In this document: positions 20,039 through 43,358 of the stretch, piece by piece
Layout: every line of letters begins with the position of its first letter
How positions within the stretch are numbered: the first letter of the stretch is position 1
Source of the DNA: Gemmatimonadales bacterium
GTDB lineage: Bacteria > Gemmatimonadota > Gemmatimonadetes > Gemmatimonadales > GWC2-71-9
Length of the DNA stretch: 64,000 nt
Assembly: GCA_036556025.1 (NCBI GenBank)
Contig: DATBKD010000093.1
Span: 1,828-65,827, forward strand
Reading direction: 5' to 3'
Made by a program: the position numbers and the translations under genes
Notes under the pieces: generated by a model
Database searches by the model: none
What the model was told of the DNA's origin: nothing
What the model saw: only the letters and a program-made list of their open reading frames with translations

Positions 20039-20428
20039 TCATTCTCCGATGTGCGAGCGGTAGGCCGTGGGCGAAAGCAGCCCCTCGAGCTCCGCGGGAT
20101 TGGACAGCTTGAGCTTGACCATCCAGCCATCGCCATAGGGGTCTCGGTTGACGACAGCGGGATCTCCGTCGAGCGCACCGTTCACTTCGGTGACCTCTCC
20201 GGCGACCGGACTGTACAGGTCGGAGACCGCCTTGACCGCTTCGATGGTGCCGAACGATTGATGGGAGGCGAGCTTGTCGCCCGGCTTGGGAAGGTTGACG
20301 AACACCACATCGCCCAACTCTCCCTGGGCGTAGTCGGTGATCCCGATGCGCACGACCCCGGCTTGGCCGGTGCGCGCGACATACTCGTGCTCGGCAGTGT
20401 AGACCAGGTCGTCCGGCACCTTGGACAC
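20039..20428 (-). CDS. gcvH: Glycine cleavage system H protein
   Basis: 129 aa. Lipoyl-lysine motif [14 protein letters not shown] and YTAEHEYV at the N-terminus. Confidence 0.95.
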
Positions 20429-23937: not shown

Positions 23938-25149
23938 ATGCCAGACCCCCTCTCGCTCAACGTGCAGCACCTGAAGGCCTCAGAGACCGTCGCCATCAGC
24001 AATGAGGCGAAACGGCGCAAGGCCGCCGGTGAAGACGTTCTGGACCTCGGCGTCGGGGAGCCCGACTTCGATACTCCCGTCCCGGCAGCTCAGGCAGGGG
24101 TTCAGGCAGTACAACGAGGGATGACCCGCTATCCGCCCAACGTCGGCATCGCGGAACTCCGGCGGGCGATCGCGCAGCAGCTGAGCCAGCTCTCCGGCGG
24201 AAGGCCCGTCGACCCGGATCGGCTGGTGGTCAGCTCCGGCTCCAAGCAATCCATCTTTAACGCCTGCTTCACCCTCTTTGGGCCCACGGATCGAGTGCTG
24301 ATCCCTGCCCCCGCCTGGGTCTCCTATCCCCAGATCGTCCACCTCTGTCGCGCAGAGCCGGTCTTGGTCCCGGGTGATGTCGAGTGGGGACTCAAGGTGA
24401 GCGTAAAGGATCTCGACCGCCAGAGTAACCGGATGACCCGAGGGCTCATTCTCTGTTCGCCCTGCAACCCCACCGGCGCGGTTTACACCTTGCCCGAGCT
24501 CAAGGCCATCGCCGAGTGGGCCAAGAAGAATGAGATCTGGATCATCTCCGACGAGATCTATCGGCGGATCCACTTCGGACCGGGGCCGGCTGCGTCGCTG
24601 CTCGACCTTCCCGACGACCTGCTCGAGCGCACCGTGATCATCTACGGGGCCAGCAAGGCCTACGCGATGACTGGCTGGCGAATCGGGGCGGCGTGGGCGC
24701 CGCCACACCTCACCAAAGCGATGGCCGCACTGCAGTCCCACACCACGACCGGCGCCAACCATCCGGCGCAGTGGGCTGCGGCGACGGCGTTCACTGACGA
24801 ACGGGTCGAAGCGGAAGTGGTGAGGATGGTCGCCGCCTTCCGCCATCGCCGAGATTACCTGGTCGGCCGCTTCCGGGCTGAGCTGCCCGGGATCGAGTTC
24901 GTGGAGCCCCACGGCGCGTTTTACTTCTTCTTCCGGGTCGATGGTATCCGGGAGAAGGATCCGGTGACCGGACAGGCCTTCTGCGAGCAGCTGATGAAGC
25001 AGGAGGGGGTCGCCCTCGTTCCCGGCGGCGCCTTTGCCGACGATCGGTGGGTTCGTCTGAGCTATGCCGTCTCCGACTCGGAGCTGGAGCAGGCGCTGGA
25101 TCGAATCGTTCGGTTCGTTCAGCGGCTGGCGTCGGCACGTGCCGCCTAG
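23938..25149 (+). CDS. Class I/II pyridoxal-phosphate aminotransferase (aspartate aminotransferase-like)
   Basis: ATG 23938 is in frame with track ORF 23671..25149. LDLGVGEPDFDTP, SDEIYRRI and the PLP lysine in YGASKAYAMTGWRIG. Confidence 0.9.
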   Translation: MPDPLSLNVQHLKASETVAISNEAKRRKAAGEDVLDLGVGEPDFDTPVPAAQAGVQAVQRGMTRYPPNVGIAELRRAIAQQLSQLSGGRPVDPDRLVVSSGSKQSIFNACFTLFGPTDRVLIPAPAWVSYPQIVHLCRAEPVLVPGDVEWGLKVSVKDLDRQSNRMTRGLILCSPCNPTGAVYTLPELKAIAEWAKKNEIWIISDEIYRRIHFGPGPAASLLDLPDDLLERTVIIYGASKAYAMTGWRIGAAWAPPHLTKAMAALQSHTTTGANHPAQWAAATAFTDERVEAEVVRMVAAFRHRRDYLVGRFRAELPGIEFVEPHGAFYFFFRVDGIREKDPVTGQAFCEQLMKQEGVALVPGGAFADDRWVRLSYAVSDSELEQALDRIVRFVQRLASARAA

Positions 25150-25675
25150 AGCCGGGACCTCGCGGGTCGAGGCGCAGGTCGAGCCGCTTACCGGCCATTT
25201 GCCCAACATCGCCTGGCGCTGGGATCCGGAGACCGACATCCTTTCCGGCTCCTTCAAGGGAAACCGAAAGAGCGGGGGACTCACCGGCACGGTCGAGCTT
25301 ACCGACGCCGAGGGCTCGGTGGCGGTGCTGGACGTGAACAACGGGGTCATCTGTGGGCTCGACGTGGTGGTCTGGCCCGAGGTAACGACCGCGGCGGAGC
25401 TCCGAGTCCCAGCTCAGCTCGCCGACGGCCGGGTGGTTCTTCCCTCTCGGACCCCGCCAGCGGGAGGCGTCTCCTCGGTCGAGGTCGACACCAGCCTCTC
25501 GGTTCAGACCAACTCGGCGGAGAGCATCTTCCATCTGCGCATTGGCCCGAAGCGCAAGGTCGACCTGATCCGGGTGGCCGATAACTTTTATGTGGAGGTC
25601 GATCAGGAGGGAGGACTGGCGGGATTCTGGATGACCAACGTGCCGCCGTTTACCGCATTTGAGGAGGAAATGTAG
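25064..25675 (+). CDS. Hypothetical protein (start uncertain)
   Basis: The open frame runs 25064..25675. ATG 25064 would overlap the aminotransferase by 86 nt. In-frame TTG 25199 (MPNIAWRWDPETD...) is an alternative. No family recognised. Confidence 0.45.
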   Translation: MPSPTRSWSRRWIESFGSFSGWRRHVPPRAGTSRVEAQVEPLTGHLPNIAWRWDPETDILSGSFKGNRKSGGLTGTVELTDAEGSVAVLDVNNGVICGLDVVVWPEVTTAAELRVPAQLADGRVVLPSRTPPAGGVSSVEVDTSLSVQTNSAESIFHLRIGPKRKVDLIRVADNFYVEVDQEGGLAGFWMTNVPPFTAFEEEM

Positions 25676-25733
25676 TTTCCCGGCTGTAACCCACCGTCAA
25701 TTCCCGTCCGGTTGATCATTCATCGGCAAAGTG

Positions 25734-26195
25734 CTACCAGCCGCGGACCCGGGCACCAGCCTGGGCTCGCGAATGAACCCCGAGCTTAGCGAGCACGTGC
25801 TGCGTGTGATGCCGGGCAGTATGGGGACTGACCCTGAGCACGGAAGCAATATCCTCGTTGGATCGGCCTTCAGCGAGGAGCATTGCTACCTGCGTCTCAC
25901 GGGGGGTGAGCCCGTATTGCAGCTGGAAGTAGACCGCGCGGGACTGCTCCGGAGCACCGTTCCCGTTCGCCGTCGGGGGAGGTGCCACAGTACCCAGCCG
26001 CGCCCTGAGCGCCCGCAACTTCGTCAGCGAGGTGCGGATCTGCTCAAGAATTGCCTCGCTGTCGCGGCGAAGCGTGGTGAGAGCGGAGACTGCGGCCACC
26101 CAACGATGCTGAAAAACCGGAAAGGTAGAATCCCCTTCGGCGCCCGATTCGCAGGTCGTACCGCGTATCGTCATTTCGACCGGGCCATCGACCAT
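25734..26195 (-). CDS. LuxR/GerE-family transcriptional regulator
   Basis: C-terminal HTH LTPRETQVAMLLAEGRSNEDIASVLRVSPHTARHHTQHVLAKLGV. The N-terminal half is unassigned. Confidence 0.8.
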   Translation of the reverse strand: MVDGPVEMTIRGTTCESGAEGDSTFPVFQHRWVAAVSALTTLRRDSEAILEQIRTSLTKLRALRARLGTVAPPPTANGNGAPEQSRAVYFQLQYGLTPRETQVAMLLAEGRSNEDIASVLRVSPHTARHHTQHVLAKLGVHSRAQAGARVRGW

Positions 26196-26285
26196 GTCGA
26201 CACCACCTCATTCATCGGATGGGTACAGTAACGGCACTGCGCTGGCGGTTCACAAGGTGCCCATACCGTCCTACCTTCAACCCCT

Positions 26286-27224
26286 ATGCCGCCTCCTAAT
26301 TTGTCACATCTTCGGCGACTTCTGGCCGTGAGAGGCGTCACGCCGGCGTCCGCCATCCCCGAAGCCAGTGCGGATCGGAGCTGGGAACCGACCATACGCC
26401 CCGCCCGCCTTCTGGAAGACGCATCCCTGGCCTGGCACCCGGTAGGTAAGGCGGAGCCCTGGCTCGAGCCTGTCGCCTTCCTGGACGGGGTCCAGCATGC
26501 CGAACTGGTAGGCTATGCCGGCTCCTGCCCGATCATCATCGGCGAGATCGCCGCGGCGGTGCGAGAGCGTCGAGAGCGCCGACTTCAGACGATCGCGGAG
26601 GACCGGCGCCAGCTCGCCATCGCCCGTCCCTCGGCTCTGGCCGCCGCCGGCGATGCCCTGGACCAGTGGCAGACGATCGCCCTGCCCGAGGACGAGATCG
26701 CCCACCCGGCGAGAGACCTGACCCAGGCCGCCAGAGCCCTCGACCGGGCGCGCGGCGCTCTGGAGTTGGAGCTGGCGGGACGCTACCGGGCCGTGTCCCA
26801 GGAATGGCTGGCCGTGGATGGGACATTGACCGAAAGCCCGGCATGGTCCGTAGACCCCCGGATGCTGGGCATCTCCAGAACCCATTCCACACTGCCGTTC
26901 GAGGGGTCGGACCTCCATCGCTATCTTCGTCTTCCCGTTGGACATCGCTCTTCGATCTTCTCGCCAGAGTCCCGCAACATGGCTCCGGTCCATGCCTGGG
27001 CGCTCCGGCTCTGGCCCTGGGAAGGACGGGATCTCTTCTACGGCCTGATCAAGATCGAAGTTGCCCCCGTCAACGGCACTCCAGAGATGGCGGACCTGCT
27101 GTCCCGAAAGGTACTGGCCGAACGTGCGCCGGTGAGCGCGCCACATGCCCGTTGGGACCGGCTGCTCTACGGCGTCTACTCCGTCGGGCAATATCTCGGG
27201 TCGCGAGCGCGGAACACGAACTGA
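26286..27224 (+). CDS. nurA: NurA-domain 5'-3' nuclease-like protein
   Basis: 312 aa. VAFLDGVQH and WLAVDGTLTES correspond to the two DG(S/T) acidic motifs of NurA, and GISRTHS matches the G.SK.. motif. It sits in a three-gene run with a HerA-like ATPase. Confidence 0.6.
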   Translation: MPPPNLSHLRRLLAVRGVTPASAIPEASADRSWEPTIRPARLLEDASLAWHPVGKAEPWLEPVAFLDGVQHAELVGYAGSCPIIIGEIAAAVRERRERRLQTIAEDRRQLAIARPSALAAAGDALDQWQTIALPEDEIAHPARDLTQAARALDRARGALELELAGRYRAVSQEWLAVDGTLTESPAWSVDPRMLGISRTHSTLPFEGSDLHRYLRLPVGHRSSIFSPESRNMAPVHAWALRLWPWEGRDLFYGLIKIEVAPVNGTPEMADLLSRKVLAERAPVSAPHARWDRLLYGVYSVGQYLGSRARNTN

Positions 27225-27225
27225 T

Positions 27226-28899
27226 ATGCGAAGAGATTTATCGGCCCTTTCCACCGGCGAGTTCGACCTGCTCGTGGTGGGTGGTGGCATCTGTGGAGCG
27301 GCCGCGGCTTGGGATGCCACTCAGCGAGGCCTCTCGGTCGCGCTGGTGGAGCGGAACGACTTTTCCGGAGCGACCTCCGCTGAATCTCTCAAGGTTGTGC
27401 ATGGCGGAATTCGCTACCTCCAGCATCTCGATCTCGTCCGGGTCAGAGAGTCCAGCCGCGAACGATCCGCCCTGCTGCGCATCGCGCCTCACCTGATCCA
27501 TCCCTTTCCCTTCGTGGTTCCGGCGTATGGCCATGGGATGCGCGGGCCGGAGGCACTGGCCGCTGCCTTCCTCGCGTGGGCGGTCCTCACGGCCGATCGG
27601 AATCGAGGGATCCCTGACCCGGGCCGCCACGTCCCCAGGGGACGCATCGCTTCGCGTCGGGAGGTCCTCGCCTGGTTTCCGCAAATCGAGCAGAAGGACC
27701 TCAGCGGCGCCGGCGTGTTTTGGGACGGACAGATGTACAATCCGCCCCGCCTGGTCTGGTCGTTCGTGCGCTCCGCATTGCGGGCGGGAGCAGCGGCGGC
27801 CAACCATTGCGAGGTGACCGGCCTGATTCGCCGGGCCGGGCGGGTAGTCGGTGCCACCGTGCGGGATCACCTCGGCGGCGCGGAGTTCGAGATCCGGAGT
27901 CGCGTGGTGCTGAATGCAACCGGGCCCTACGCGGAGTCCCTGCTGATGCAGGCGGGCATCCGCTCCGCCCGTGACGTTCCCTTTTCGCGGGACATGGCCG
28001 TCGTGATCCGGAGAGCTCCCGGCACGGAGCGGGCGCTGGCCCTGCAGACACGCTATCGCGATCCCGATGCAGTCCTGAGCCGAGGGTTTCGCCACATTTT
28101 TATGGTCCCCTGGCACGGTGTCACCTTGATCGGGGTCAACAGCGCCATCTTCCGAGGAGACCCCAATCGGCTTCGTGTCACGGAGGGTGAGGTTCAGGGC
28201 TTCCTGGACGAGATCAATGCGGCGGCTCCCCAGTTGAAGTTGTCGCTTGCCGACGTAGGCCTGGTGATGGCAGGGCTGCTGCCGATTGCCAAGGGCGAGC
28301 TGGTGGGTGAGGACGTGAGCTTCGGCAAACGCCCCTTGGTGGTCGACAACGCCCGGTTCGAGGGGGTGGAGGGCCTGGTCACTGCGATCGCGAACCGTTA
28401 CACCACCGCTCGAGGCGTGGCCGAGCGAGCGGTGGATCTTGCCGTGAAGAAGCTGGGTCGCGCGGCAACCCCCTGCCGGACCACGGAGACCCCGCTCTAC
28501 GGTGGCGACTTTTCCAAGTTCGATGCTCTGGTTCGCGAAGTCGCCTCCGAGGCGCCGGCGGGTCTGCCATCCGGCGCGGCGGAGCGCCTGGCCCATAACT
28601 ACGGCACCACCTATGTCGAGGTGCTCCGAATCGTCCGGCAACTGCCCGGCTGGGGTGAGCCCATCGGCGACACAGGCATCCTTCGCGCCGAGATCATTCA
28701 CGCGGTCCGGCACGAGATGGCGTTTCACCTGGCCGATTGCGTGTTCCGCCGTACCGACCTGGGCACCGCCGGCAACCCCGGCGATGAGGCCTTAGAGGTC
28801 GCGGCCGATCTCGCCGCGGGTGAGCTCGGCTGGACCCCCGCTCAAACCAAGGCGGAGCTGCGCGAGGTCCGCGCCCGATTCCCGTTCCCGAACCCCTGA
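27226..28899 (+). CDS. FAD-dependent glycerol-3-phosphate dehydrogenase/oxidase-like oxidoreductase
   Basis: ATG 27226 is separated from the nurA-like stop by a single nt. It has the dinucleotide fold DLLVVGGGICGAAAAWDATQRGLSVALVERNDF, then SLKVVHGGIRYL and a GlpD-type C-terminal domain. Confidence 0.8.
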   Translation: MRRDLSALSTGEFDLLVVGGGICGAAAAWDATQRGLSVALVERNDFSGATSAESLKVVHGGIRYLQHLDLVRVRESSRERSALLRIAPHLIHPFPFVVPAYGHGMRGPEALAAAFLAWAVLTADRNRGIPDPGRHVPRGRIASRREVLAWFPQIEQKDLSGAGVFWDGQMYNPPRLVWSFVRSALRAGAAAANHCEVTGLIRRAGRVVGATVRDHLGGAEFEIRSRVVLNATGPYAESLLMQAGIRSARDVPFSRDMAVVIRRAPGTERALALQTRYRDPDAVLSRGFRHIFMVPWHGVTLIGVNSAIFRGDPNRLRVTEGEVQGFLDEINAAAPQLKLSLADVGLVMAGLLPIAKGELVGEDVSFGKRPLVVDNARFEGVEGLVTAIANRYTTARGVAERAVDLAVKKLGRAATPCRTTETPLYGGDFSKFDALVREVASEAPAGLPSGAAERLAHNYGTTYVEVLRIVRQLPGWGEPIGDTGILRAEIIHAVRHEMAFHLADCVFRRTDLGTAGNPGDEALEVAADLAAGELGWTPAQTKAELREVRARFPFPNP

Positions 28900-28914
28900 G
28901 ACACATTTAGCATC

Positions 28915-30858
28915 ATGCAGCAACCCCTTCCTCCCATCGGCCGGGTCGTCGCGACCGAGCTCAAGCCCTCCACACCCCACCAATTCCATTTCTGGACTGC
29001 CCGGGAATCGCCGATTGGGATCGGAGCCATCGTGCGCGTGGAGGACGCAGGGCGGGTCGTGTATGGCGTGGTGACCGACGGATTCGCGTACTCCGATCTG
29101 ATGACCCCCATGCACGCGGTGCTTGGCGCCGACGGTGATCCCGTCGCCGCGGGCCTCGAGCCCAGTGAGCGCGCCGAAATTCGGCTCTACTCCGCCGCCG
29201 TCCTGCGACAGATACCGGAGGAGCCGCTGCAGCCGGTTCCGCTGGGTCCGGTGTGGCTCGCCTCCGACGCCGACGTGATCCTTGCGCTCCGGATGGACAG
29301 CTATACGGGGCACGATCGCGCCACCGGCATACCCGTCGGACTGTACGCCGCCGGCGGAGTGGAGTCCCCGGTTTATCTGGACTGCGACTTTCTCCTGGGC
29401 CCGGAGGCCGCCCATCTGAACATCACCGGCGTGTCGGGACTCGCCACCAAGACCAGCGCAGTCGAGTTTCTGCTCACCAGCATCTTTCAGACGTTTCCTG
29501 CCCACAAAGGCTCGGTCGCGGCGCTCTGCTTCAATGTGAAGGGGCCCGACCTCTGCTTTCTGGATCAGCCCGCCGAGCTGAGCGAGGAGGATCGTCGGAT
29601 CTACGCCCGGCTGGGTCTGCGTCCCGAACCGTTTTCCAAGGTCCGGTATTACGCGCCCTTCAAGCCCGATGGGGTCAATCTCAATACCCTTCGTACCAAC
29701 GAGGCGCTGGTCGCGAATACCGAGCCTCTCATCTGGGGGCTGCGTGAGGTGCTGGACTACGCCGAGGTCGTGCTCAACCGGGACGACATCGACGCCAAGG
29801 CTGACGCCTTCATCGACTTTCTCGCCGAGCGAGTGGTGGGGAGGGAGTATCAGGATGAGATGCTGCGGGGCAAGCCGTTCTGCGTGCAGAGCTTTGCCGA
29901 CCTGGAAGAGTTCTTCCGCTGCATCTTCGACTTCATGGAGCTGCTGGGTAAAGGCGGCGAAGTGTGGAAGACCCACCATCTCGCCACTATTCGGAAGGTG
30001 CGCAACCGCCTGAGCAACATCTCCACCCGTTCAAAGGGCCTGGTCACCGACGATGGAATCGCCCACGATCTTCCCTGGGGCCGGTTCGAAGACCGGGGCG
30101 TCCATGTGGTGGATGTTGCCGGACTGGATCCCCTGGCGCAGGACCTCGTCTTCGCCCGGATCGTGTCCAAGCTGCGGGAGCACCTGGAGCGCCGGGATCT
30201 CGGGGTGGACCACGTCGTCGTGTTTGTGGATGAGCTGAACAAGTACGCGCCGGCCGAAGCTCCCGACACCTACGTCCGCAAGATGCTCCTCGACCTGTCG
30301 GAGCGAGGTCGCTACCTCGGTCTGGTCCTGTTCTCCGCCCAGCAGTTTCGTTCGCAGGTGCAGCGGAGGGTGGTGGGCAACGCGGGGACCGGCATCTACG
30401 GACGGATGGATATGGATGAGTTGGCCACGCCAGGGTATGCGACCCTCTCGCCCGCGACCAAGATCAAGCTGGCGACCCTGCCGAAGGGTCAGCTCATGGT
30501 CCGCCACCCTCATTTTACCCAGCCGATTTTTGTGAAATTCCCGCGCCCCGCCGTGCTGGCCAGTCGGGACGGCATCGAGCGCTACCCGCCGAGCGCCGAG
30601 TTGCCCTTCGGGGAGGCGGTGGCGCGACAGATCCGCATGCTCGATCGGGCAGTGTCGGTAGACGCGGTCCGCGCCCTGATCGACGGCCGGGGGGAGGACG
30701 ACGTGAGACGGGCGTTGGCGGCAACTCGGCGGGAGCGGGCGGCCGATCCACTCGCTTTCTTCAAGGCATGTCTCGGCCGCCGAGTCAACGGTGAGGTCCT
30801 GGCTCCCCGCCGGGGCATTCCCGCGGTGCACCGCGCCGACGATTCCTATGGGAGGTGA
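28915..30858 (+). CDS. herA: HerA-like (FtsK/HerA superfamily) ATPase
   Basis: 647 aa. N-terminal HAS-barrel-like segment (IGRVVATE...GAIVRVE...VYGVVTD), Walker-A-like GVSGLATKTS and Walker B HVVVFVDELNKYAP. Domain order and size fit bacterial HerA. Confidence 0.7.
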   Translation: MQQPLPPIGRVVATELKPSTPHQFHFWTARESPIGIGAIVRVEDAGRVVYGVVTDGFAYSDLMTPMHAVLGADGDPVAAGLEPSERAEIRLYSAAVLRQIPEEPLQPVPLGPVWLASDADVILALRMDSYTGHDRATGIPVGLYAAGGVESPVYLDCDFLLGPEAAHLNITGVSGLATKTSAVEFLLTSIFQTFPAHKGSVAALCFNVKGPDLCFLDQPAELSEEDRRIYARLGLRPEPFSKVRYYAPFKPDGVNLNTLRTNEALVANTEPLIWGLREVLDYAEVVLNRDDIDAKADAFIDFLAERVVGREYQDEMLRGKPFCVQSFADLEEFFRCIFDFMELLGKGGEVWKTHHLATIRKVRNRLSNISTRSKGLVTDDGIAHDLPWGRFEDRGVHVVDVAGLDPLAQDLVFARIVSKLREHLERRDLGVDHVVVFVDELNKYAPAEAPDTYVRKMLLDLSERGRYLGLVLFSAQQFRSQVQRRVVGNAGTGIYGRMDMDELATPGYATLSPATKIKLATLPKGQLMVRHPHFTQPIFVKFPRPAVLASRDGIERYPPSAELPFGEAVARQIRMLDRAVSVDAVRALIDGRGEDDVRRALAATRRERAADPLAFFKACLGRRVNGEVLAPRRGIPAVHRADDSYGR

Positions 30859-30864
30859 CTTCAA

Positions 30865-32745
30865 TCAGGAGACCAGCCGCTCCGAATCGTCTTCCTGAGA
30901 GATGACTCGTCGTACCTTCATCCGGAGCAGCCGCGCCCGGCCGGAAAGCCACCCCGCCTCGCGCACCTGCTCCTCTTCCGCGATTTCTCGCCAGGCCGAC
31001 GCGATCCCTTTCCGCCCCAGATAGCCCACCAACCTATCCGGGTGGTGGCGATCCACCACGGGTAGCCGCCCGATGTCGTGGCGCACCATCTTGTCCACCG
31101 CTTCTTCCAGCAGCTCGTCCGGATAGGTAACCACCAGCGAGCGGCTCCCTGCCTCCAGCACGCTCCGATCGCCACCCACTCCGGACGAAGCGGCTCGCAC
31201 CAGATCTCCCCGGGTCACTATTCCCACCAGGATTCCTTTGGAGTCGAGGATTGGCCAGGCGTATTGCTCCGCCAGCGTTGGATCGTGCCTTGCCAGCAGG
31301 CTCGACAGCGCGTCCACCGTCATGTCGGCCCGTAGCGTCGGAGCGTTCGCCTGCATGACGTCTTCCACCCGGGAGCGTGACAGGGGGTTCACGATGTACT
31401 CCCGCATCACGTGATAGCCCCGCCGGGCAACCTTTTCGGTCAGGATGGACCGGCGCATCAGCAGTACCGTCACCGTCTGCGCCGCCACGCATCCGATCAG
31501 AAGGGCCGGAAGCACCAGGATATCGTTGGTGAGCTCGAGCATGAACGCCACCGCGGTGAGCGGAGAGCGCATCGTCCCACCCATGATCGCGGCCATGCTG
31601 ATCATGGCCCAGAGCCCGGTGTCGCCCAAATGAATCCAATGCGCCTCGACGGCACCGAGCGCGCCGCCCATGATCAGGAGCGGTGCCAGCACCCCACCCG
31701 AAGTGCCGGAGCCTAGAGCGATGGCCCAGATGAGCGCCTTGGTGATCGCGAGGCCGATCAGGAAGCTGCCCACCAGGCGGCCGTTCAACAGGTCGCCGAT
31801 GGTGTCATAGCCGACCCCCAGGGCGCGGGGAAAGAACAGACCTCCCAGACCGACGAACAGGCCTCCGATGACCGGCCACCACATGAAGTGGATCGGCAGC
31901 TTGGCGAACAGATCTTCAAAGGAGTAGACCAGCCAGGTCAGCAGCCCCGATCCAAACCCGGCGGCCAGGCCCACTGCCAACGCCATGAGAAGCTCGTCCC
32001 AGGAGAGCGCCGCGTGGGGCGTGACTGGGAAGATCGGACCTTGTCCCAGCAACGGCACTCGCAGTGCGGCCGCGACGGCGGCGGAGGCGGCCACCGGAAT
32101 GAAGCTTCTCGGCTTCCACTCGAACAGCAGCAACTCGACGGCGAGCAGGACCGCGGCCAACGGCGTGGCAAAGATCGCCGCCATGCCTCCCGCCGCGCCG
32201 GCAACCAAAAGGGTCTTCCGCTCGGCCGCTGAGAGGTGGAAGGCCTGGGCGAACAGCGATCCGAACGCGCCGCCAGTCATGATGATGGGTCCCTCGGCAC
32301 CGAATGGTCCGCCGGTGCCGATGGAGATGGCGGAGGAGAGCGGCTTGAGCAGGGCGACCTTGGCGCTCATCCGGCTCCGGCCGATCAGAATGGCTTCCAT
32401 CGCCTCCGGAATCCCGTGTCCCCGAATTTTCTCTGAACCGTAGCGCGCCATAAGCCCGATGATGAGTCCGCCCACCATCGGGACCAGGACGGCGCCGAGC
32501 CCCAGGGTGTTTTCCGCCGGGGAGACCAGGTGCGAGCTCCACCTGTGGTAGTACACCAGATTGGTGATGCTGCCGATCAGCCAGACCAGGGCCACGGCCA
32601 CCAGCGCGCTGAGCACCCCGACCACGGCGGCCATCGGGGTAATGATCAAAAGCCGCGTGTCGACCGTGAAATCGCCGAGTCGCTTCTGAGAGTTGGATTC
32701 GCCTGGAGGTATCGCGGTGTCGAGAGAGGATTCAGGAAGGGTCAT
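30865..32745 (-). CDS. ClC-family chloride channel/antiporter with C-terminal CBS pair
   Basis: 626 aa. GSGIPE-like GHGIPEA, GTGGPFGAEGP and GVLAPLL selectivity motifs. Tandem CBS domains at the C-terminus. Confidence 0.9.
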   Translation of the reverse strand: MTLPESSLDTAIPPGESNSQKRLGDFTVDTRLLIITPMAAVVGVLSALVAVALVWLIGSITNLVYYHRWSSHLVSPAENTLGLGAVLVPMVGGLIIGLMARYGSEKIRGHGIPEAMEAILIGRSRMSAKVALLKPLSSAISIGTGGPFGAEGPIIMTGGAFGSLFAQAFHLSAAERKTLLVAGAAGGMAAIFATPLAAVLLAVELLLFEWKPRSFIPVAASAAVAAALRVPLLGQGPIFPVTPHAALSWDELLMALAVGLAAGFGSGLLTWLVYSFEDLFAKLPIHFMWWPVIGGLFVGLGGLFFPRALGVGYDTIGDLLNGRLVGSFLIGLAITKALIWAIALGSGTSGGVLAPLLIMGGALGAVEAHWIHLGDTGLWAMISMAAIMGGTMRSPLTAVAFMLELTNDILVLPALLIGCVAAQTVTVLLMRRSILTEKVARRGYHVMREYIVNPLSRSRVEDVMQANAPTLRADMTVDALSSLLARHDPTLAEQYAWPILDSKGILVGIVTRGDLVRAASSGVGGDRSVLEAGSRSLVVTYPDELLEEAVDKMVRHDIGRLPVVDRHHPDRLVGYLGRKGIASAWREIAEEEQVREAGWLSGRARLLRMKVRRVISQEDDSERLVS

Positions 32746-32792
32746 AGACCGAAGCTACACTGTTCCTGACCTCTCCGACAAGCGAAGCAGAG

Positions 32793-32810
32793 CCCTTGAT
32801 TAATCAAGGG
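32793..32810. promoter_or_regulatory. Perfect 18-bp palindrome, candidate operator between the ClC gene and sbcD
   Basis: CCCTTGATTAATCAAGGG equals its own reverse complement. It is centred 28 nt upstream of the sbcD GTG in an 84-nt divergent intergenic region. Confidence 0.5.
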
Positions 32811-32829
32811 GTTACGAGACATTAGTGGG

Positions 32830-34041
32830 GTGAAGCTCGCACACCTTGCCGACGCTCACCTCGGCATCCGGCAGTATCAGCGGTTGAACTCGGCCGGCGT
32901 CAACCAGCGGGAGGCGGACGTCGCGCAGGCCTTCCGCTACGCTATCGATGGCGTCATTGCCGCCCGTGCGGACGCCGTCGTCCTCGCCGGCGATCTCTTC
33001 CATTCGGTGCGTCCCCCCAATTCGGCGATCGTCTTCGCGTTCAGACAGCTTCAGCGGTTGCATGAGGCCCTGCCGGATGCTCCCATCATCCTCATTGCCG
33101 GCAACCACGATACGCCCCGCTCAGCCGACACCGGCAGCATTTTGCGTCTCTTCGAGGAGCTGGGGGTCGATGTCGCCACCGACGAGGCCCGACGCCTGGT
33201 ATACCCGGCGCTCGATCTGGCCGTGTTGGCGGTGCCACACCAGGCCGTCGTGGCCACGGAGCGCACCTCCCTCAGGCCCGCGGGAGGCGAGGGAAATCAG
33301 GTGCTGGTGCTGCACGGGGAAGTGGAAGGCATCTACCCCGGGGACCGAAGCGCCACCGATTACGGCGGTGCACTCATTGACGCGCAGGCGTTGAAGGCAG
33401 GCGGGTGGAGTTATGTGGCGCTGGGCGACTTCCATGTCCAGTATCAGGTGAAGCAGGAGAAGAGAGAGAAGAAAGCACCGCCGATCTGGTACGCCGGAGC
33501 CCTGGAGTACGTGAGCCCCAACTTCTGGGGCGACCTCCGGCTCGAGCGGGAGCTCGGGCTGGAAGGCAAAGGGTGGCTCCTAGTCGAGTTGGAATCCGGC
33601 AAGGTTACATCGGTCAAGCGCCAAGTAGTGCCCCGGGCCCGTGACATCGTGGATCTCGACCCTCTGTACGCCGACGGTCTCGATGCTCCGGCGGTCAGTG
33701 CCGAGATCGCGGCCAGGGTCGCCCGCATTCCGGGAGGTATCGCCGAGAAGATCGTACGCCTCGTGGTCCATAATGTGCCCCGCCACGTCGCCCGGGAGCT
33801 GGATCACGCCGCTATTCGAGCCCTCAAGACAGCCGCTCTCCATTTCCGTTTGGACCTCCGCCGACCCGAAATCCATCGTGCTGTCGGAGTCGGCTCGCCG
33901 GGCCACCGGCAAACCCTTCCCGAGATGGTCCGCTATTACCTCGAGCACCGGCCGCTGCCGGCCGATCTCGACCGGGAGCGCTTCGTCCGACTCGGGGGCG
34001 AGCTCATGGATGCAGTCGAGCGCGATCTGACGGGTGCCTGA
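32830..34041 (+). CDS. sbcD: SbcD/Mre11-family nuclease
   Basis: GTG start. Phosphoesterase motifs LADAHLG, VLAGDLFH, IAGNHD and LGDFHV. Confidence 0.85.
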   Translation: MKLAHLADAHLGIRQYQRLNSAGVNQREADVAQAFRYAIDGVIAARADAVVLAGDLFHSVRPPNSAIVFAFRQLQRLHEALPDAPIILIAGNHDTPRSADTGSILRLFEELGVDVATDEARRLVYPALDLAVLAVPHQAVVATERTSLRPAGGEGNQVLVLHGEVEGIYPGDRSATDYGGALIDAQALKAGGWSYVALGDFHVQYQVKQEKREKKAPPIWYAGALEYVSPNFWGDLRLERELGLEGKGWLLVELESGKVTSVKRQVVPRARDIVDLDPLYADGLDAPAVSAEIAARVARIPGGIAEKIVRLVVHNVPRHVARELDHAAIRALKTAALHFRLDLRRPEIHRAVGVGSPGHRQTLPEMVRYYLEHRPLPADLDRERFVRLGGELMDAVERDLTGA

Positions 34042-36461
34042 TGCAGATCAATCGCCTCCGGCTCTCCAATTTTCGCCAGCACGAGCACACCGACCTCGAG
34101 TTGGGTCCGGGCCTCACCGGCATCATCGGCCCCAACGGCGCTGGCAAGACGACTCTGCTGGAGGCCATCGCGTGGGCGATGTACGGCATGCCCGCAGCCC
34201 GGGGAAACCGGGAGACGATTCGTCGCCGCGGCGCGCCCCCTCGGGCCAAGGTCGAGGTCGAGCTGGAGTTCACCCTGGGCTCGCATCAGTATCGTGTCCT
34301 CAGGTCACTGAGTTCGGCCGAGCTGTATCAGGACGGCGATCCGGCTCCGATCGCCAACTCGATCGGCTCGGTCACCGACCGGATGACCCGACTGCTGGGC
34401 ATGACCCGGGACGAATTCTTCAACACCTATTTTACCGGCCAGAAGGAACTCGCGGTGATGGCCGCGATGAGTGCTCCGGAACGGGCCCAGTTTCTCTCCC
34501 GGGTGCTGGGATACGAGCGTATCCGGGCCGCTCAGGACCGGCTCAAGGAGCGCCGCTCCAGCCTGCGGGCGCGATTGGATGCGCTCCGAGCCAGTCTGCC
34601 GGATCTGGCCGAGCTCGAGGCCGCCGAGGCTCGGGCCCGCGAGCGAGCGGCGGCCGCGGCTCTGGCCGAAGCCTCCGCCCTCGACGGCTTCGCCGCGGCC
34701 GAACGACGGCTGGGAGAGGTTCGTCCCCGGTGGGAGCGGATCCAGCAACTTCGGGAGACCGCGCTCTCGCTGGAGGCCGATGCCAGGGTGGCCGATCACC
34801 GCGCCGCCACCGCCGCCGAGCAGGTGGAGCGGCTGGAGCGGCATATGAGCGAGGCCGAAACCGCTCGGCGGCGCCTCAAGGCGCTGCAGCGACAATTCGC
34901 ATCACTGGCCGGGCTGCGAGAGGAGGCCCAAGCCCTGAATCGCAGTGCGGAGTCTCATGCGATACGAGTCCGAGTGCGTGCTCAAATGGAGGAGGTGCGA
35001 GCCCACCTCGCCTCGGTCGAAGAGCGGATCGCGCGCTTGCCCTCCGAAGCGGCCCTTGCCGCCGCCCGCGCCCGAGCCAGCGGGACAAGAGCGACGCTGA
35101 CCGCCCTGGCCCTCGACATTGAGACGACTCGTACGGCCTGGGTGCGCGACGCGCAGGACGCCAAGACGAAGCGGCAGGCTCTGCTGGACCAATACCAGGA
35201 GCTCAAGGAGCAGCGGCAGCGCCTGGTCAAGGCCGGTCCTCTGGGTGACTGTCCGACCTGCACTCGGCCACTGGGGAGCGAGTACGAAAAGGTGCTTGGC
35301 CTGCTGGAGCGGCAAATCGAAGAGGTAGTCTCCAATGGAAATTTCTACAAGCAGCGCATAGAACAACTCCAGCAGGAGCCGGCGGGGCTGGACGAGATGG
35401 AACGCCGGCGTGTGGCACTGGAGAGCGAGCTGTCCGAGGGCACGGCCGAGCTGGGTCACTTCGAGGCACAGATGCAGGAAGCCGGCACGCTTCGAAGGGA
35501 TGAGAGCGGTCTGCGACAGCGGCTCGGCGACCTGGAAGCGTCCCTCGGGGAAGTCGCCGTGTCATACGACCAGGCCCGCCACGAAGCCGTCCTTCAGCAG
35601 ATCAAGGCGCTGGAACCGCTAGAGCTTCAGGCCGAGGGGCTTCGCGTCGCCGCCGGCCGAGGAGCGCAGCTGGCCCAGGAGCTCGAAGCCGCCCGGAAGG
35701 AGCGGGAGGAAGCGGCTCGCCGTGCGGACGAGCACCACGCACGGCTGGCGGCGACGGACTACAGCGAAGAAGGGTACCGTGAGACTCGCACAGCCGCGCT
35801 CGCCGCGGAGCAGGCGCGGCAGGAGGCCGAAGTACGCCTGGTGCGCGCCAAGGCGGAGACGGCGGCGGCGGCGGAGGCCATCGATGTGGTCGCGCGCCGG
35901 CGGACGGAACGGGCGGCACGAGAGCAAGAAGCGGCGGCGGCCGCAACGGAGCTGGCACTGCATCAGGAGCTCGACCGGGCACTCACCGATCTGCGAACCG
36001 AGCTGAATGCCAGTCTTCGTCCGGATCTCTCCGAGCTGGCCTCTGGCTTCCTGCGAGACCTGACCAACGGTCGCTATACCGATCTGGAGCTGGACGAGGA
36101 GTACGGCACCCTCCTTCTGGACGATGGCGATCCCAAGGCCGTGATCTCGGGCGGCGAGGAGGATGTGGCCAACCTGGCCCTCCGGCTGGCCATCAGTCAG
36201 ATGATTGCCGAGCGCGCCGGGCAGCCACTCTCGCTCCTTATCCTCGATGAGATCTTTGGCTCGCTGGACGAGGATCGGCGAGTTGCGGTGGTGGATCTGC
36301 TCCGGAGTCTGGCAGACCGATTCCCCCAGGTCATCCTGATCACCCATATCGATTCGGTGCGCGAGGGGTTCGATCGAGTCATCCGGGTCGGCTTCGATCT
36401 TGCGACCGGCGTCGCTAGCGCCTGGGATGAGCCGGTGGGAGGCCAGGATGTGGCGGCCTGA
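34041..36461 (+). CDS. sbcC: SbcC/Rad50-family ATPase
   Basis: ATG shares 1 nt with the sbcD stop (TGATG). Walker A GPNGAGKTT, long coiled coil with zinc hook CPTC, signature SGGEEDVANLALRLA and Walker B LLILDEIFGSLD. Confidence 0.9.
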   Translation: MQINRLRLSNFRQHEHTDLELGPGLTGIIGPNGAGKTTLLEAIAWAMYGMPAARGNRETIRRRGAPPRAKVEVELEFTLGSHQYRVLRSLSSAELYQDGDPAPIANSIGSVTDRMTRLLGMTRDEFFNTYFTGQKELAVMAAMSAPERAQFLSRVLGYERIRAAQDRLKERRSSLRARLDALRASLPDLAELEAAEARARERAAAAALAEASALDGFAAAERRLGEVRPRWERIQQLRETALSLEADARVADHRAATAAEQVERLERHMSEAETARRRLKALQRQFASLAGLREEAQALNRSAESHAIRVRVRAQMEEVRAHLASVEERIARLPSEAALAAARARASGTRATLTALALDIETTRTAWVRDAQDAKTKRQALLDQYQELKEQRQRLVKAGPLGDCPTCTRPLGSEYEKVLGLLERQIEEVVSNGNFYKQRIEQLQQEPAGLDEMERRRVALESELSEGTAELGHFEAQMQEAGTLRRDESGLRQRLGDLEASLGEVAVSYDQARHEAVLQQIKALEPLELQAEGLRVAAGRGAQLAQELEAARKEREEAARRADEHHARLAATDYSEEGYRETRTAALAAEQARQEAEVRLVRAKAETAAAAEAIDVVARRRTERAAREQEAAAAATELALHQELDRALTDLRTELNASLRPDLSELASGFLRDLTNGRYTDLELDEEYGTLLLDDGDPKAVISGGEEDVANLALRLAISQMIAERAGQPLSLLILDEIFGSLDEDRRVAVVDLLRSLADRFPQVILITHIDSVREGFDRVIRVGFDLATGVASAWDEPVGGQDVAA

Positions 36462-37410
36462 CCGGAGTGTGCGCGGGCCGGATCGACCCACGCTGCGCGA
36501 TGTAGATCAACTCAACCGGGTCTTCGCCGAAGCTTTTACCGATCGCTACAGTCGGGACGGGCTGGTGGGCGTGCGCGTGCCCCAGCTCAACCCACTGGTC
36601 TGGCGCTACGCCCTGGAAGATGCCGGTGACGGGTCAATGGTCTGGCGGGATGCGGACGGGCAGATCGTCGCATTCAACATGGTCCATCGGTCCGGAACCG
36701 AAGGGTGGATGGGCCCGTTGGCGGTTCGACCGGATCGCCAGGGAGAAGGGCTCGGCTCCATGATGGTGCGAATCGGCATCGAGTGGCTTCGGGGGCAGCA
36801 TGCCACCACCATCGGTCTGGAAACCATGCCCCGGACGGTAGACAACATCGGCTTTTACAGTCGCATCGGGCTAGTACCGGGACATCTCACCGTCACCCTG
36901 GTTCAGGATGTACCTCGAAGGGTTGCCGGACCTCGCTTGGAGCTCCTCTCCGCTGCGGGAACCCGGGGGCCGGAGCTGATCGTCGAATGCCGCCGGTTGA
37001 CCGACAGCCTCCTTCCTGGGGTGGACTTCACCCGTGAACTGACTCTCACTCGGGAGCTCGCGATCGGGGACACGACCCTCCTGCGAGAAGATGGCACGCT
37101 TATCGCCTTTGCCTTATGGCACTCCACTCCTCTCGCCGCCGGACGCCCAAAGGATGAACTGCGCGTCCTCAAGCTGGTGGCACGAGACGCCCCCGCCTTC
37201 GAACGCCTGCTGAGCACGCTGCCGGCCACCGCCGCGGCCGAGCGAGTGGGACGCATCGCGGTTCGCTGCCAGACAGAATTTGCCACCTCCTACCTCCGGC
37301 TGGTCGGGCTCGGCTACCGGGTTCATTGGACCGATCTTCGAATGTTGCTTGACGGCTTCCCCCAGCGGCCACCGCTCGAGGGCATCGTCATGTCCAATTG
37401 GGAAATCTGA
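36448..37410 (+). CDS. GNAT-family N-acetyltransferase (two-domain)
   Basis: ATG 36448 with a GGGAGG RBS 5 nt upstream; it overlaps the sbcC 3' end by 14 nt. Acetyl-CoA motif RPDRQGEGLGSMMV. Confidence 0.75.
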   Translation: MWRPDRSVRGPDRPTLRDVDQLNRVFAEAFTDRYSRDGLVGVRVPQLNPLVWRYALEDAGDGSMVWRDADGQIVAFNMVHRSGTEGWMGPLAVRPDRQGEGLGSMMVRIGIEWLRGQHATTIGLETMPRTVDNIGFYSRIGLVPGHLTVTLVQDVPRRVAGPRLELLSAAGTRGPELIVECRRLTDSLLPGVDFTRELTLTRELAIGDTTLLREDGTLIAFALWHSTPLAAGRPKDELRVLKLVARDAPAFERLLSTLPATAAAERVGRIAVRCQTEFATSYLRLVGLGYRVHWTDLRMLLDGFPQRPPLEGIVMSNWEI

Positions 37411-38177: not shown

Positions 38178-38252
38178 TTCAGCCCAAGGGCGGTGGGGTC
38201 TCCGGGAACGGTTGGGTCTCATTGCAAGGAGAGTCATGAAAGGCTAAGGCGG
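38178..38252 (+). promoter_or_regulatory. Conserved 5' leader, copy A
   Basis: 75 nt. It shares boxes TTCAGCCCAAG and GGGAACGGTTGGGT at the same spacing with 41296-41371. GCCCAA and UUGGGU can pair. Confidence 0.5.
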
Positions 38253-39788
38253 ATGACCTACACATTCAAGTTATCACGGAGACTGGCACTCTCGCGAGTT
38301 CATGGGGGACTCGTCGCCGCGATCGGACTTGCGGCATGCGTCGGCGATTCCACCGCGCCGGAATCCTTGGTTTCCTCCACCAACAGTTGGTCGACAGCTC
38401 TTTCCCCCCAACCCGCCAGTTCAGGCCACCCGGTCGCCTTCGCTCGACACATCAGGGTCGCCCAGCTCATCCTCAGCCCCGACTCTGCCACTCTCGCGCC
38501 TGGGGTAACCCAGCAGTTTGTCGCCTACGGCCGAACCCGTACGGGCGACAGCGTCAGCCTCCGAGTGACGTACTCGGCCTCGGGCGGAACGATTACCCAG
38601 TCCGGACAATACACCGCTGGTTCCAGTGGCGGGACCTACCGCATCATCGCGAGCAGCGGTCCGCGGGCGGATACGTCGGTGGTGACGCTCGCCGCCGCGC
38701 CGTCGCCGACGCCGCTGCCCCCAGCGTCGCCAACCCTCGTCCGCCTGCTGCTGCGTCCTGAATCGGTGACGCTCCTTCCGGGGGCGACTCAACAGTTCTT
38801 GGTCTACGGACGAATGAGCAACGGCGACAGCGTCGCTGTGAGCGCGGCGTTCGCCGCCACCGGCGGCAGCCTTACGAGCGCGGGGCTCTACACCGCCGCG
38901 GCGACCAGTGGCAGCTATCGCATCGTCGCGACGAGCAGCGGTCTGGCGGACACGTCGTCGGTTTCGGTGGGACCTGCCCCCGCGCCAAGCCCCGCTCCGG
39001 CACCCGCGCCGGCAGGCGGTGGGATCCCCTTCGGCCAGTTCCATGTGCCTGATGCCTTGTTTGGGAAGCCCTACACGGGCGCCCTCCGTACGGTCAGTCC
39101 GACCTCCGTACTCTCTGTGCTCAAGAATGCACGTGCAGCCAGGGCGCGGATTGTCCTGGATCTGGCCGGCTCCCGCCGCATGTATACCAATGCCGACGGC
39201 ACCTGGAATCTGGAGTTGTGGAAGCAGCGGATCGATCGGTACCGTGGGATGGATTTCGCTCCCTACGTGGCTGACGGAACGGTGATCGTCAACTATCTGT
39301 TGGATGAGCCAAACTGCCCCGAGTGCTGGGGGGGAAAGACCATCCCCTTCGCGGATATCGAGGCCGCGGCGAAGTACAGCAAGAGCATCTGGCCCTATAT
39401 GCCGACCGGTGTTCGCGTGATCCCCAGTTGGCTCCAGGGCGCCGGCTTCCGTTGGGTCGCAGTGGACATGGCCTGGGCCCAGTACAAGACCAGCAAAGGT
39501 GACCTGAGAACGTTCTTGAATCGCGAGGTCACTGCGGCCAAGGCACTCAGCCTCGGACTGGTAGCAGGGATGAACATCACCCACGGCGGCTCGCCCGACC
39601 GAACCGAGATGACCCCGGCCATGCTGCGCTCGTATGGGGAGTTGCTGGCGAGAGAGCCGTACAGCTGTGGTTTCATCAACTGGCAGTACGAGACCGCCTA
39701 CGAGTCGCGAGCCGACATCCAAGACGCGATGGACTACCTCGTCGGGATCACTCGCAGCCGACCGAGCGCGCCCTGCGTTCGCCACTGA
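38253..39788 (+). CDS. Secreted lipoprotein with two Big_2 (bacterial Ig-like) domains and an unassigned ~290-aa C-terminal domain (paralog A)
   Basis: ATG 38253 gives MTYTFKLSRRLALSRVHGGLVAAIGLAAC (lipobox). Repeats LSPDSATLAPGVTQQFVAYGRT...YRIIASS and LRPESVTLLPGATQQFLVYGRM...YRIVATS are Big_2-like. The C-terminal domain is shared with 41372..43315. Confidence 0.75.
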   Translation: MTYTFKLSRRLALSRVHGGLVAAIGLAACVGDSTAPESLVSSTNSWSTALSPQPASSGHPVAFARHIRVAQLILSPDSATLAPGVTQQFVAYGRTRTGDSVSLRVTYSASGGTITQSGQYTAGSSGGTYRIIASSGPRADTSVVTLAAAPSPTPLPPASPTLVRLLLRPESVTLLPGATQQFLVYGRMSNGDSVAVSAAFAATGGSLTSAGLYTAAATSGSYRIVATSSGLADTSSVSVGPAPAPSPAPAPAPAGGGIPFGQFHVPDALFGKPYTGALRTVSPTSVLSVLKNARAARARIVLDLAGSRRMYTNADGTWNLELWKQRIDRYRGMDFAPYVADGTVIVNYLLDEPNCPECWGGKTIPFADIEAAAKYSKSIWPYMPTGVRVIPSWLQGAGFRWVAVDMAWAQYKTSKGDLRTFLNREVTAAKALSLGLVAGMNITHGGSPDRTEMTPAMLRSYGELLAREPYSCGFINWQYETAYESRADIQDAMDYLVGITRSRPSAPCVRH

Positions 39789-39817
39789 CCTGACGGGCTC
39801 TGCCGTCGTGGTTCACA

Positions 39818-39846
39818 GCGGCCGCCCTCAAAGCGAGGGCGGCCGC
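39818..39846. terminator. GC-rich hairpin between convergent genes (no U-tract)
   Basis: GCGGCCGCCCTC-AAAGC-GAGGGCGGCCGC, a 12-bp perfect stem. It encloses the stop codon of the GT4 gene (39828-39830) and lies 30 nt after the stop of paralog A. Confidence 0.4.
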
Positions 39847-40985: not shown

Positions 40986-41263
40986 CTCATCGACCTCGCA
41001 TGCGTGGCATTGATGCGGTTGGACGTACTGGCGTTGCTGTCTCCACGAGTGGGCGGGAAGTATATCGCGCCACCCCCCTCCAGCGCGCCACCACCGAAAG
41101 GGGCTGGCTCGATACCGGTGCAGAATTCTTCCACATGCTGTATATGAAATATACAAAAATCTGTTACAATTTCACCGGGAATATTGACTCAAGTACTTTT
41201 GCTGGAATGAACTCCAACTGACGCAAATAGTGACGTTTTGATGTTTCGTCTAAATTCTAGACA

Positions 41264-41292
41264 TTGAATTCTCGCGCCTGCTGCCGTAAATA
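41264..41292 (+). promoter_or_regulatory. Sigma-70-like promoter candidate for Big_2 paralog B
   Basis: TTGAAT-N17-TAAATA at the edge of an AT-rich island. It has the same position relative to the conserved leader TTCAGCCCAAG (41296). Confidence 0.5.
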
Positions 41293-41295
41293 AAG

Positions 41296-41371
41296 TTCAG
41301 CCCAAGTGTGGGGGACGCGGCGAGGGAACGGTTGGGTGCCACGGTTGGGGTGGTACACGAGGTAAAAATCG
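41296..41371 (+). promoter_or_regulatory. Conserved 5' leader, copy B
   Basis: 76 nt. Same two boxes as 38178-38252, otherwise diverged. Confidence 0.5.
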
Positions 41372-43315: not shown

Positions 43316-43358
43316 CAGGCTGACCCAACCGAAACAGCCCCAGCCTGTAGAGCGTGAG

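Follow-up and report, generated by a model that had tools for sequence, protein, structure and literature searches.

The window analysed here, a stretch of 64,000 nucleotides (nt) of a Gemmatimonadales (Gemmatimonadota) contig whose positions are counted from its first letter, bears genes for a NurA-like nuclease, a HerA-type ATPase, an Mre11/SbcD-family nuclease and a Rad50/SbcC-family ATPase, and we consider it likely that these genes, chromosomal and inherited vertically, specify a machinery of four components that would process the ends of DNA double-strand breaks. The identities of the genes, their intact catalytic and ATPase motifs and their conserved linkage were all observed. Protein matches supported the Gemmatimonadales origin of the window; its G+C content was 65% throughout, the cluster being indistinguishable from its flanks. 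An earlier note, made from the letters of the window, had described this segment as an archaeal-style end-resection gene set in a bacterial neighbourhood. Seven open reading frames (ORFs) were found exactly at the coordinates stated, those for the NurA-like, HerA, Mre11 and Rad50 proteins all being on the plus strand.

The product of the first gene (26286-27224, plus strand, 312 amino acids) was assigned by its fold and by a family profile. As a single sequence it gave no match to Pfam even at E ≤ 1, so that the gathering score of Pfam NurA (PF09376) was not reached, no match in NCBIfam or in a phmmer search of the PDB sequences, and none that was meaningful in PADLOC. The profile search on which the earlier note had staked its reading of a NurA-domain protein thus formally goes against it, whereas the fold, the family profile and the catalytic residues uphold the identification. 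An AlphaFold model built from 26 homologues (pLDDT 73, pTM 0.75) had NurA structures as its four best Foldseek matches in the PDB, namely 1zup (TM1739 of Thermotoga maritima, E 2e-9), 7f6d_G (NurA of Deinococcus radiodurans, DrNurA, E 6e-8), 2ygk (SsoNurA, E 7.5e-8) and 8wfd_G (the NurA-like subunit of TdpAB, E 1e-6), with TM scores of 0.45-0.55 and 11-14% sequence identity to the solved NurAs. EndoV and Argonaute ranked after them, as expected for an RNase H-like/PIWI fold.

The family to which this protein belongs was large, with 1262 matches at E ≤ 1e-3 in a 90%-clustered collection, among 8000 candidates scored, and with 667 clusters at 50% identity. A profile made from 85 diverse representatives, 22-52% identical to the NurA-like protein of the window, was compared with 177,635 PDB sequences and found DrNurA (7f6d_H, E 4.2e-8) and TM1739 (E 9.8e-8), the next match being at E 0.047; weak Pfam NurA matches were seen in 13 of the 85 members, the best one at 1.5e-5. 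The profile alignment set D67, E160 and D178 against Asp49, Glu140 and Asp157 of T. maritima NurA (TmNurA), and the three residues were invariant or at least 90% conserved across the 85 members. The TmNurA numbering assumes a 12-residue expression tag in the PDB chain and agrees with the published numbering at each of the three residues, and the alignment stops short of the fourth residue (Pf His411/Tm Glu280). These positions belong to the NurA active-site residues reported for TmNurA (Asp49, Glu140 and Asp157) and for PfNurA (Asp51 and Glu105) (PMC3300031). Because of the fold matches, the family profile and the conserved active-site residues, and despite the failed direct searches, we identify the product of 26286-27224 from profile and model as a divergent NurA of bacterial type, predicted to be active and overlooked by current profile libraries.

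The predicted HerA-type hexameric DNA translocase ATPase (28915-30858, plus strand, 647 amino acids) was recognised by phmmer against the PDB sequences, which gave D. radiodurans HerA (DrHerA, 7f6d_B) at E 1.4e-45 over residues 7-278 and 344-561, corresponding to the barrel and the ATPase core. The only other chain at E ≤ 1 was an unrelated dehydrogenase (E 0.35), and archaeal HerA was not detected by this search at that threshold. The Walker A motif GVSGLATKT (residue 172) and the Walker B motif VVFVDEL (residue 435) aligned to K175/T176 and D487/E488 of DrHerA, residues that are needed according to mutation (PMC9960219). The Pfam HAS-barrel (PF09378) scored 16.4 bits against a cut-off of 25.2 (E 0.0095), the N-terminus aligning to the barrel region of DrHerA, and no match to DUF87 (PF01935) was found by Pfam. 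The aligned Walker motifs and the homology to DrHerA bear out the claim of a HerA-like ATPase, which by its sequence is of the bacterial (Deinococcus) type; it is ~50% identical to its Armatimonadota-type homologues.

An annotation gap is apparent from both proteins. Pfam NurA essentially misses the bacterial NurA family, the label of the NurA-like protein at the source being 'hypothetical protein', and its HerA partner is labelled merely 'ATP-binding protein' in databases. Since these labels are uninformative, genome surveys of double-strand-break repair capacity would overlook the NurA-HerA pathway.

The Mre11/SbcD-family nuclease (32830-34041, plus strand, 403 amino acids) matched Pfam Metallophos at 1e-9, and the motifs HLADAHLG, GDLFH, GNHD and GDFH could be read in its translation; all 69 homologue alignments (69/69) began at residue 1. 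Its best NCBIfam model was the archaeal Mre11_Sulfo (90.7 bits, cut-off 500), followed by sbcd (TIGR00619, 72.1 bits, cut-off 77.65), and its best PDB relatives were the Mre11 proteins of Pyrococcus furiosus and Methanocaldococcus jannaschii (~56 bits), with that of T. maritima at 29 bits. The Rad50/SbcC-family ABC ATPase (34041-36461, plus strand, 806 amino acids with a short coiled coil; Pfam SMC_N, AAA_23 and SbcC_Walker_B) had a Walker A (GPNGAGKTT), a signature (SGGEEDV), a Walker B (LLILDE) and an H-loop, as well as a CPTC zinc hook in the middle of the protein (residues 404-407), a position shared by homologues of other lineages. It scored 193 bits on the archaeal model PRK03918 (cut-off 700) and 108 on sbcc (cut-off 478.5), and in the PDB 110 bits with M. 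jannaschii Rad50, 90 with that of T. maritima and 31 with Escherichia coli SbcC. The full motif sets agree with the earlier identification of SbcD/Mre11 and of SbcC/Rad50 with a CPTC hook. Both proteins were below every NCBIfam curated cut-off, archaeal or SbcCD, and Mre11 appears from its sequence to be a distinct clade. Rad50 of the Gemmatimonadota/Armatimonadota type was short (~805-816 amino acids) and scored best on archaeal Rad50 models, pointing to a short clade of the Mre11-Rad50 (MR) complex in Gemmatimonadota and Armatimonadota-like contigs, with a modest archaeal leaning.

The higher scores of Rad50 and Mre11 on archaeal models and PDB entries than on those of SbcCD, and the archaeal-like length of Rad50 (~805 amino acids), would fit a recent transfer of all four genes together from a (thermophilic) archaeon. 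We regard this as very improbable, given that HerA and NurA are closest to the Deinococcus and Thermotoga types, with no archaeal HerA at E ≤ 1, that the scores on archaeal models are far under the equivalog cut-offs, and that the G+C content is the same as in the flanks. The presence of the cluster in deep Gemmatimonadota and in Armatimonadota-like contigs, and the identities found there, fit a long vertical divergence, and the order nurA-herA-mre11-rad50 is not that of archaea (herA-mre11-rad50-nurA). The proposal of an archaeal-type four-component machinery made by the earlier note was therefore sustained in part: all four components are present and MR leans archaeal, whereas NurA and HerA belong to the bacterial type known from Deinococcus and Thermotoga.

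A search for HerA relatives in a species-representative genome collection gave 520 stretches, of which 80 were kept; these were the HerA loci of as many species-level genomes of Gemmatimonadales, with HerA 78-94% identical, and the genes of the window were mapped onto each one. The mre11-rad50 pair was found downstream of herA in 70 of the 80 loci. In nine of the ten exceptions the contig ended within 1.7 kb of herA, and only one locus (L064) was truly without mre11-rad50. The herA and mre11 genes were directly adjacent, with mre11 starting less than 400 nt past the herA stop, in 49 loci. In the DNA retrieved, which reached up to 10 kb, nurA lay upstream of herA in 69/80 loci, directly upstream in 43 of them, and a fully compact nurA-herA-mre11-rad50-GNAT arrangement, ending with an acetyltransferase gene, was present in 28. 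In one of the compact loci (L004) the gap between nurA and herA was ~30 nt and that between herA and mre11 ~64 nt, and both the mre11/rad50 and the rad50/GNAT pairs overlapped.

The upstream housekeeping context, gcvP-coaE-tdk-dbpA, was syntenic across the phylum, and the cluster was retained in three deep Gemmatimonadota-like lineages (L085, L093 and L096), the first one referred to Gemmatimonadota by the source name of a member of its HerA cluster, and the other two assigned only by the dbpA/tdk context that they share and, for L093, by its GNAT gene as well. The linkage, which the earlier note had proposed to check in related genomes, was thus kept in close and distant relatives, with the four genes contiguous in most Gemmatimonadales, and it is far above chance. 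Its other suggestion, that the genes had been acquired as a block, was not indicated for any recent event by the uniform G+C content and the syntenic housekeeping neighbourhood; the cluster is most likely chromosomal, vertically inherited and part of the core genome in Gemmatimonadota.

Contiguous nurA-herA-mre11-rad50 genes were also found with entirely different flanks in two contigs (L086 and L088), the former being Armatimonadota-like only by the names of its HerA relatives, at 56-66% identity. Between the Gemmatimonadota, L086 and L088 lineages, HerA was ~50% identical, and NurA, Mre11 and Rad50 ~30%. A tblastn search of HerA against plasmid records gave four further instances: nurA-herA-sbcD-SMC in a plasmid of Ca. 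Chlorohelix (Chloroflexota), nurA-herA-sbcD-sbcC in a cyanobacterial plasmid (Sphaerospermopsis), herA-sbcD-SMC-nurA in a Streptomyces plasmid and herA-sbcD-sbcC-nurA in the 11.85-Mb chromosome of Nonomuraea gerenzanensis, the actinomycete modules being at 6794-13492 of L089 and 6878-14447 of L092. In these four modules HerA was 28-32% identical to that of the window and the NurA-like genes were found by the family profile (E 2e-27 to 3e-12); all carried a canonical SbcD (TIGR00619 above the cut-off) and a long SbcC of 1006-1117 amino acids, and their flanks were unrelated.

Genes for ImmA/IrrE-family metallopeptidases adjoined the modules of Ca. Chlorohelix (5092-5826 of L090) and Streptomyces (5141-6313 of L092), an adjacency that may reflect either damage-responsive regulation or a defence-island context. 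The Streptomyces module was also flanked by DUF2397, TIGR02678 and TIGR02680 genes, which correspond to the type II Wadjet set, and TIR-domain, Ser/Thr kinase and transposase genes were found near that of Ca. Chlorohelix.

A linkage that reappears while MR type, gene order and flanks vary is hard to explain without functional coupling, and the association with the MR complex has been kept or re-made across MR types. The recurrence of the linkage in several phyla gives strong comparative evidence that bacterial NurA-HerA would cooperate with MR/SbcCD. The alternative is that two independent systems became neighbours by inherited synteny, NurA-HerA acting in another DNA transaction and the SbcCD-like MR in the cleavage of hairpins or ends. 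The whole region from dbpA to the GNAT gene is syntenic in Gemmatimonadota, where conservation could be mere inertia, the herA|mre11 junction repeatedly takes unrelated inserts (ClC and exported proteins of 273-300 amino acids), and Deinococcus and Thermus have no reported linkage of the two pairs. Inertia cannot explain, however, the co-occurrence of the four genes in L086 and L088, where the flanks are altogether different, and in four other lineages, where MR type and gene order differ; moreover, the overlaps and very short gaps of the compact loci suggest co-transcription, and binding of archaeal HerA to Mre11 is cited in PMC4663267. Two unconnected systems are on these grounds an unlikely explanation.

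Several observations weigh against a cooperating four-component machinery. No nurA was found near herA, despite sufficient flank, in 6 Gemmatimonadales; one contig (L087) had nurA-herA without MR; and NurA-like genes stood alone, with no HerA-like gene within up to 9-10 kb, in an Armatimonadota contig (4348-5322 of L083), in L094 (9001-10026) and in L095 (9001-10035). These uncoupled relatives show the linkage to be frequent, not obligatory, and the stand-alone NurA-like proteins may have HerA-independent roles or partners encoded in trans. In the window itself a gene of the opposite strand divides the module, and a scan for promoters and terminators between 25.5 and 38.5 kb found just as many signals as shuffled sequence would give and so was uninformative on transcription units. 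Finally, NurA-HerA has elsewhere been proposed to act in plasmid partitioning and in conjugation-like DNA transfer (TdtA), and one of the fold matches of the NurA-like model was the HerA/NurA-like pair TdpAB (8wfd), which acts in defence. One more NurA-like gene, at 249-1292 of L081, was also alone, this being weak evidence given merely 249 nt of upstream sequence.

That the module, or its HerA-NurA half, is a defence system against plasmids or phages, or a mobile-element system, that destroys foreign linear DNA is to our judgement quite unlikely. Plasmids do carry homologous modules next to genes for ImmA/IrrE, TIR-domain, transposase and DUF2397/TIGR02678/TIGR02680 proteins, and TdpAB (8wfd), a defence complex, is among the fold matches; Blackwood et al. 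have also speculated that HerA-NurA protects against foreign DNA. The window proteins gave weak PADLOC matches, of HerA to mad8 (1.5e-8) and of Rad50 to LmuB and mad3; these correspond, however, to generic ABC/ASCE ATPase similarity, with no system-specific component, and the NurA-like, Mre11 and GNAT proteins had no meaningful match. Defence systems are typically patchy and fast-evolving, whereas this cluster is near-universal in its lineage, with HerA 78-94% identical among the 80 loci kept of 520 stretches, and has a housekeeping neighbourhood syntenic across the phylum, a native composition and no flanking defence genes.

Returning to the four-component machinery, its genes are interrupted in the window by two others. 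A GlpD-like FAD-dependent glycerol-3-phosphate dehydrogenase/oxidase (27226-28899, plus strand, longest ORF from 27145; Pfam DAO 1e-41 and DAO_C 8e-23) lies between nurA and herA; according to start-codon analysis its probable start is the ATG at 27226, 1 nt past the nurA stop at 27224, and its stop at 28899 is followed by the herA start at 28915. A ClC chloride channel/antiporter with a CBS pair (30865-32745, minus strand, 626 amino acids; Pfam Voltage_CLC 2e-77 and CBS) lies between herA and mre11, convergent with herA and 6 nt past its stop, with 84 nt from the ClC start to the mre11 start; the mre11 stop is overlapped by the rad50 start. The opposite-strand ClC gene splits the module and makes co-transcription of all four genes impossible in the window, where two transcription units, nurA-glpD-herA and mre11-rad50-GNAT, are probably present. 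A single uninterrupted operon was found not in the window, with its glpD and opposite-strand ClC genes, but in the 28 compact Gemmatimonadales loci, L086 and L088. A search of 64 loci for a conserved motif ahead of nurA, such as an SOS-box-like palindrome, found none, these regions being unalignable.

The glpD gene was present between nurA and herA in only ~20 of the 80 related genomes. At the herA|mre11 junction a ClC gene was found in 18 of 70 informative genomes, in both orientations and as two sequence types (76-81% and ~47% identity), and other insertions occurred in 3 Gemmatimonadales loci; the loci that mark this junction as a recurrent insertion point include L006, L018, L040, L009 and L071. 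The closest relative (L001, 94% HerA identity) had glpD, no ClC and no insertion at the junction. The deeper lineages had inserts of one or two genes in the same place (12884-14598 of L085, 10213-11115 of L093 and 12044-12865 of L096), encoding weakly related proteins of 273-300 amino acids with signal-peptide or lipoprotein-like N-termini. These proteins were rejected as members of the cluster and taken for passengers, since neither the window nor the other loci compared yielded a homologue. An ORF of 166 amino acids upstream of nurA (25731-26231) was also rejected as a member, since it had no family hit and no similarity to the L085 gene at the equivalent position. GlpD and ClC are lineage-specific passengers inserted in an ancestrally contiguous cluster, their insertion being regarded as later because most Gemmatimonadales have the four genes side by side.

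The tandem-GNAT acetyltransferase gene (36448-37410, plus strand, 320 amino acids, longest ORF from 36400; Pfam Acetyltransf_1) starts at the ATG 36448, preceded by GGGAGG, with a 14-nt overlap with the rad50 stop. Its product has homologues of 318-320 amino acids that are at least 79% identical, and its model (pLDDT 78) matched the folds of the tandem GNATs MAB_4324, MshD and Eis. The gene was next after rad50 in nearly all Gemmatimonadota loci, those of the deep lineages included, and not in the Armatimonadota-type loci, and its conservation (~80% identity) was above that of Mre11 and Rad50 (~65-70%). In Gemmatimonadota the cluster has GNAT as a conserved fifth member, whose product may be a fifth partner or a regulator specific to the lineage. 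The ancestral arrangement in this phylum would have been one co-oriented cluster, nurA-herA-mre11-rad50-GNAT.

As to the surroundings of the cluster, a 456-amino-acid protein with no Pfam or NCBIfam hit is encoded upstream (23980-25350, minus strand) and is conserved there in most Gemmatimonadales, next to a helicase-like protein (22319-23875, minus strand) whose Pfam match was solely to the DbpA RNA-binding domain. Downstream lies an exopolysaccharide-type region (38193-48868) including a Big_2 protein, a GT4 glycosyltransferase (39828-41156, minus strand), an ORF of 647 amino acids without family hits (41372-43315), a tyrosine-kinase-type chain-length regulator of the Wzz/GNVR/ParA-like kind (44363-46840) and a GTPase/APS-kinase fusion with GTP_EFTU and APS_kinase domains (47033-48868), the last of which we read as a CysN/CysC-like protein. 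The glycine-cleavage P-protein gene gcvP (17122-20178, minus strand) is ~6 kb upstream of nurA. In Thermus, nurA-hepA is directly followed by gcvT and other glycine-cleavage genes (PMC5448004). The location of glycine-cleavage genes near NurA-HerA in two phyla is probably a coincidence.

On the model of the archaeal system (PMC3326311) and of the complex of D. radiodurans (PMC9960219), Mre11-Rad50, formed by a zinc-hook ABC ATPase and a nuclease that would be Mn-dependent, may recognise and tether a DNA end and trim or nick blocked termini. The HerA hexamer would then thread the duplex through its pore using ATP and feed it to a NurA dimer docked on the HAS-barrel face, where the strands would be separated; the RNase H-like active sites of NurA (D67/E160/D178) would degrade the 5' strand, and a 3' tail would remain for RecA. 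The physical cooperation of the components, the polarity of resection and a regulation by DNA damage are all proposed here on that analogy.

A wider reading, which we offer tentatively and with more doubt than conviction, would make NurA-HerA plus MR/SbcCD an ancient, under-annotated end-resection machine occurring in at least six phyla (Gemmatimonadota, Armatimonadota, Chloroflexota, Cyanobacteriota, Actinomycetota and Deinococcota) and with two MR types (a short, archaeal-leaning Rad50/Mre11 and the canonical SbcCD), being a core system in Gemmatimonadota with GNAT as its fifth partner. If this were true, the Gemmatimonadota system may be the main source of 3' tails that RecA can load onto, replacing or paralleling RecBCD/AddAB. 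Gemmatimonadota has cultured members, such as Gemmatimonas, and this phylum and the actinomycetes are places in which the cooperation of NurA-HerA with MR could be tested. The linkage bears on a question that was left open for Deinococcus, namely whether NurA-HerA cooperates with SbcCD as in archaea (PMC4663267).

When the cluster is compared with known systems, the closest in composition is the herA-mre11-rad50-nurA operon of archaea, which is textbook knowledge. The Gemmatimonadales hosts, recovered from environmental metagenomes (soil), are probably not thermophiles. With the operon of Sulfolobus and Pyrococcus the cluster shares the four protein families, a NurA with an RNase H-like fold and an acidic triad, a RecA-like HerA with a putative HAS-barrel, a Rad50 with a CxxC hook in the short ~800-880-amino-acid format and, in the compact relatives, a tight co-oriented packing. 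Unlike the archaeal four-gene operon, which has been discussed in PMC3326311, it is found in a bacterial host, with the order nurA-herA-mre11-rad50, an extra tandem-GNAT gene coupled to rad50, and NurA and HerA of the bacterial branch, SsoNurA being matched at the fold level only; in the window it is also broken by glpD and the opposite-strand ClC gene.

Among bacteria, NurA-HerA has been characterised in Deinococcus and Thermus. The NurA-HerA of D. radiodurans (DR_0836/DR_0837; PDB 7f6d) resects DNA ends (PMC9960219), and its HerA is the closest solved homologue of that of the window, both sharing a GxSGxATKT Walker A and a DELNKYAP Walker B; the order nurA then herA is common to the two. In contrast to the window, where MR is linked, no linkage to sbcCD has been reported in Deinococcus, and the connection of NurA-HerA to SbcCD there 'remained to be uncovered' (PMC4663267). 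The earlier note knew of no bacterial NurA-HerA pairs described as clustered with sbcCD; such an arrangement has been described once, in Oceanithermus profundus, where sbcD and sbcC follow nurA-hepA(herA) and were read as an archaeal-like architecture for double-strand-break repair (Blesa et al. 2017, PMC5448004). That thermophile of the Deinococcota thus shares with the window a nurA-herA pair directly followed by SbcD/SbcC homologues, a likeness taken from the published description; it was a remark on a single genome, whereas here the arrangement is kept across an entire order and its phylum, with an MR that is short and archaeal-leaning.

In the full-text literature no such cluster was found described for Gemmatimonadota, Armatimonadota, actinomycetes, cyanobacteria or Chloroflexota, earlier mentions being possible. 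The plasmid and actinomycete modules have in common with the window a HerA homologue, a NurA-like gene and an MR-family pair in a tight co-oriented cluster, and differ by their canonical SbcD and long SbcC and by being often plasmid-borne, near ImmA/IrrE and defence-like genes; the actinomycete order herA-sbcD-sbcC-nurA is the archaeal one, but with canonical long bacterial SbcCD. The Gemmatimonadota cluster therefore extends a known arrangement and is not a new kind of system.

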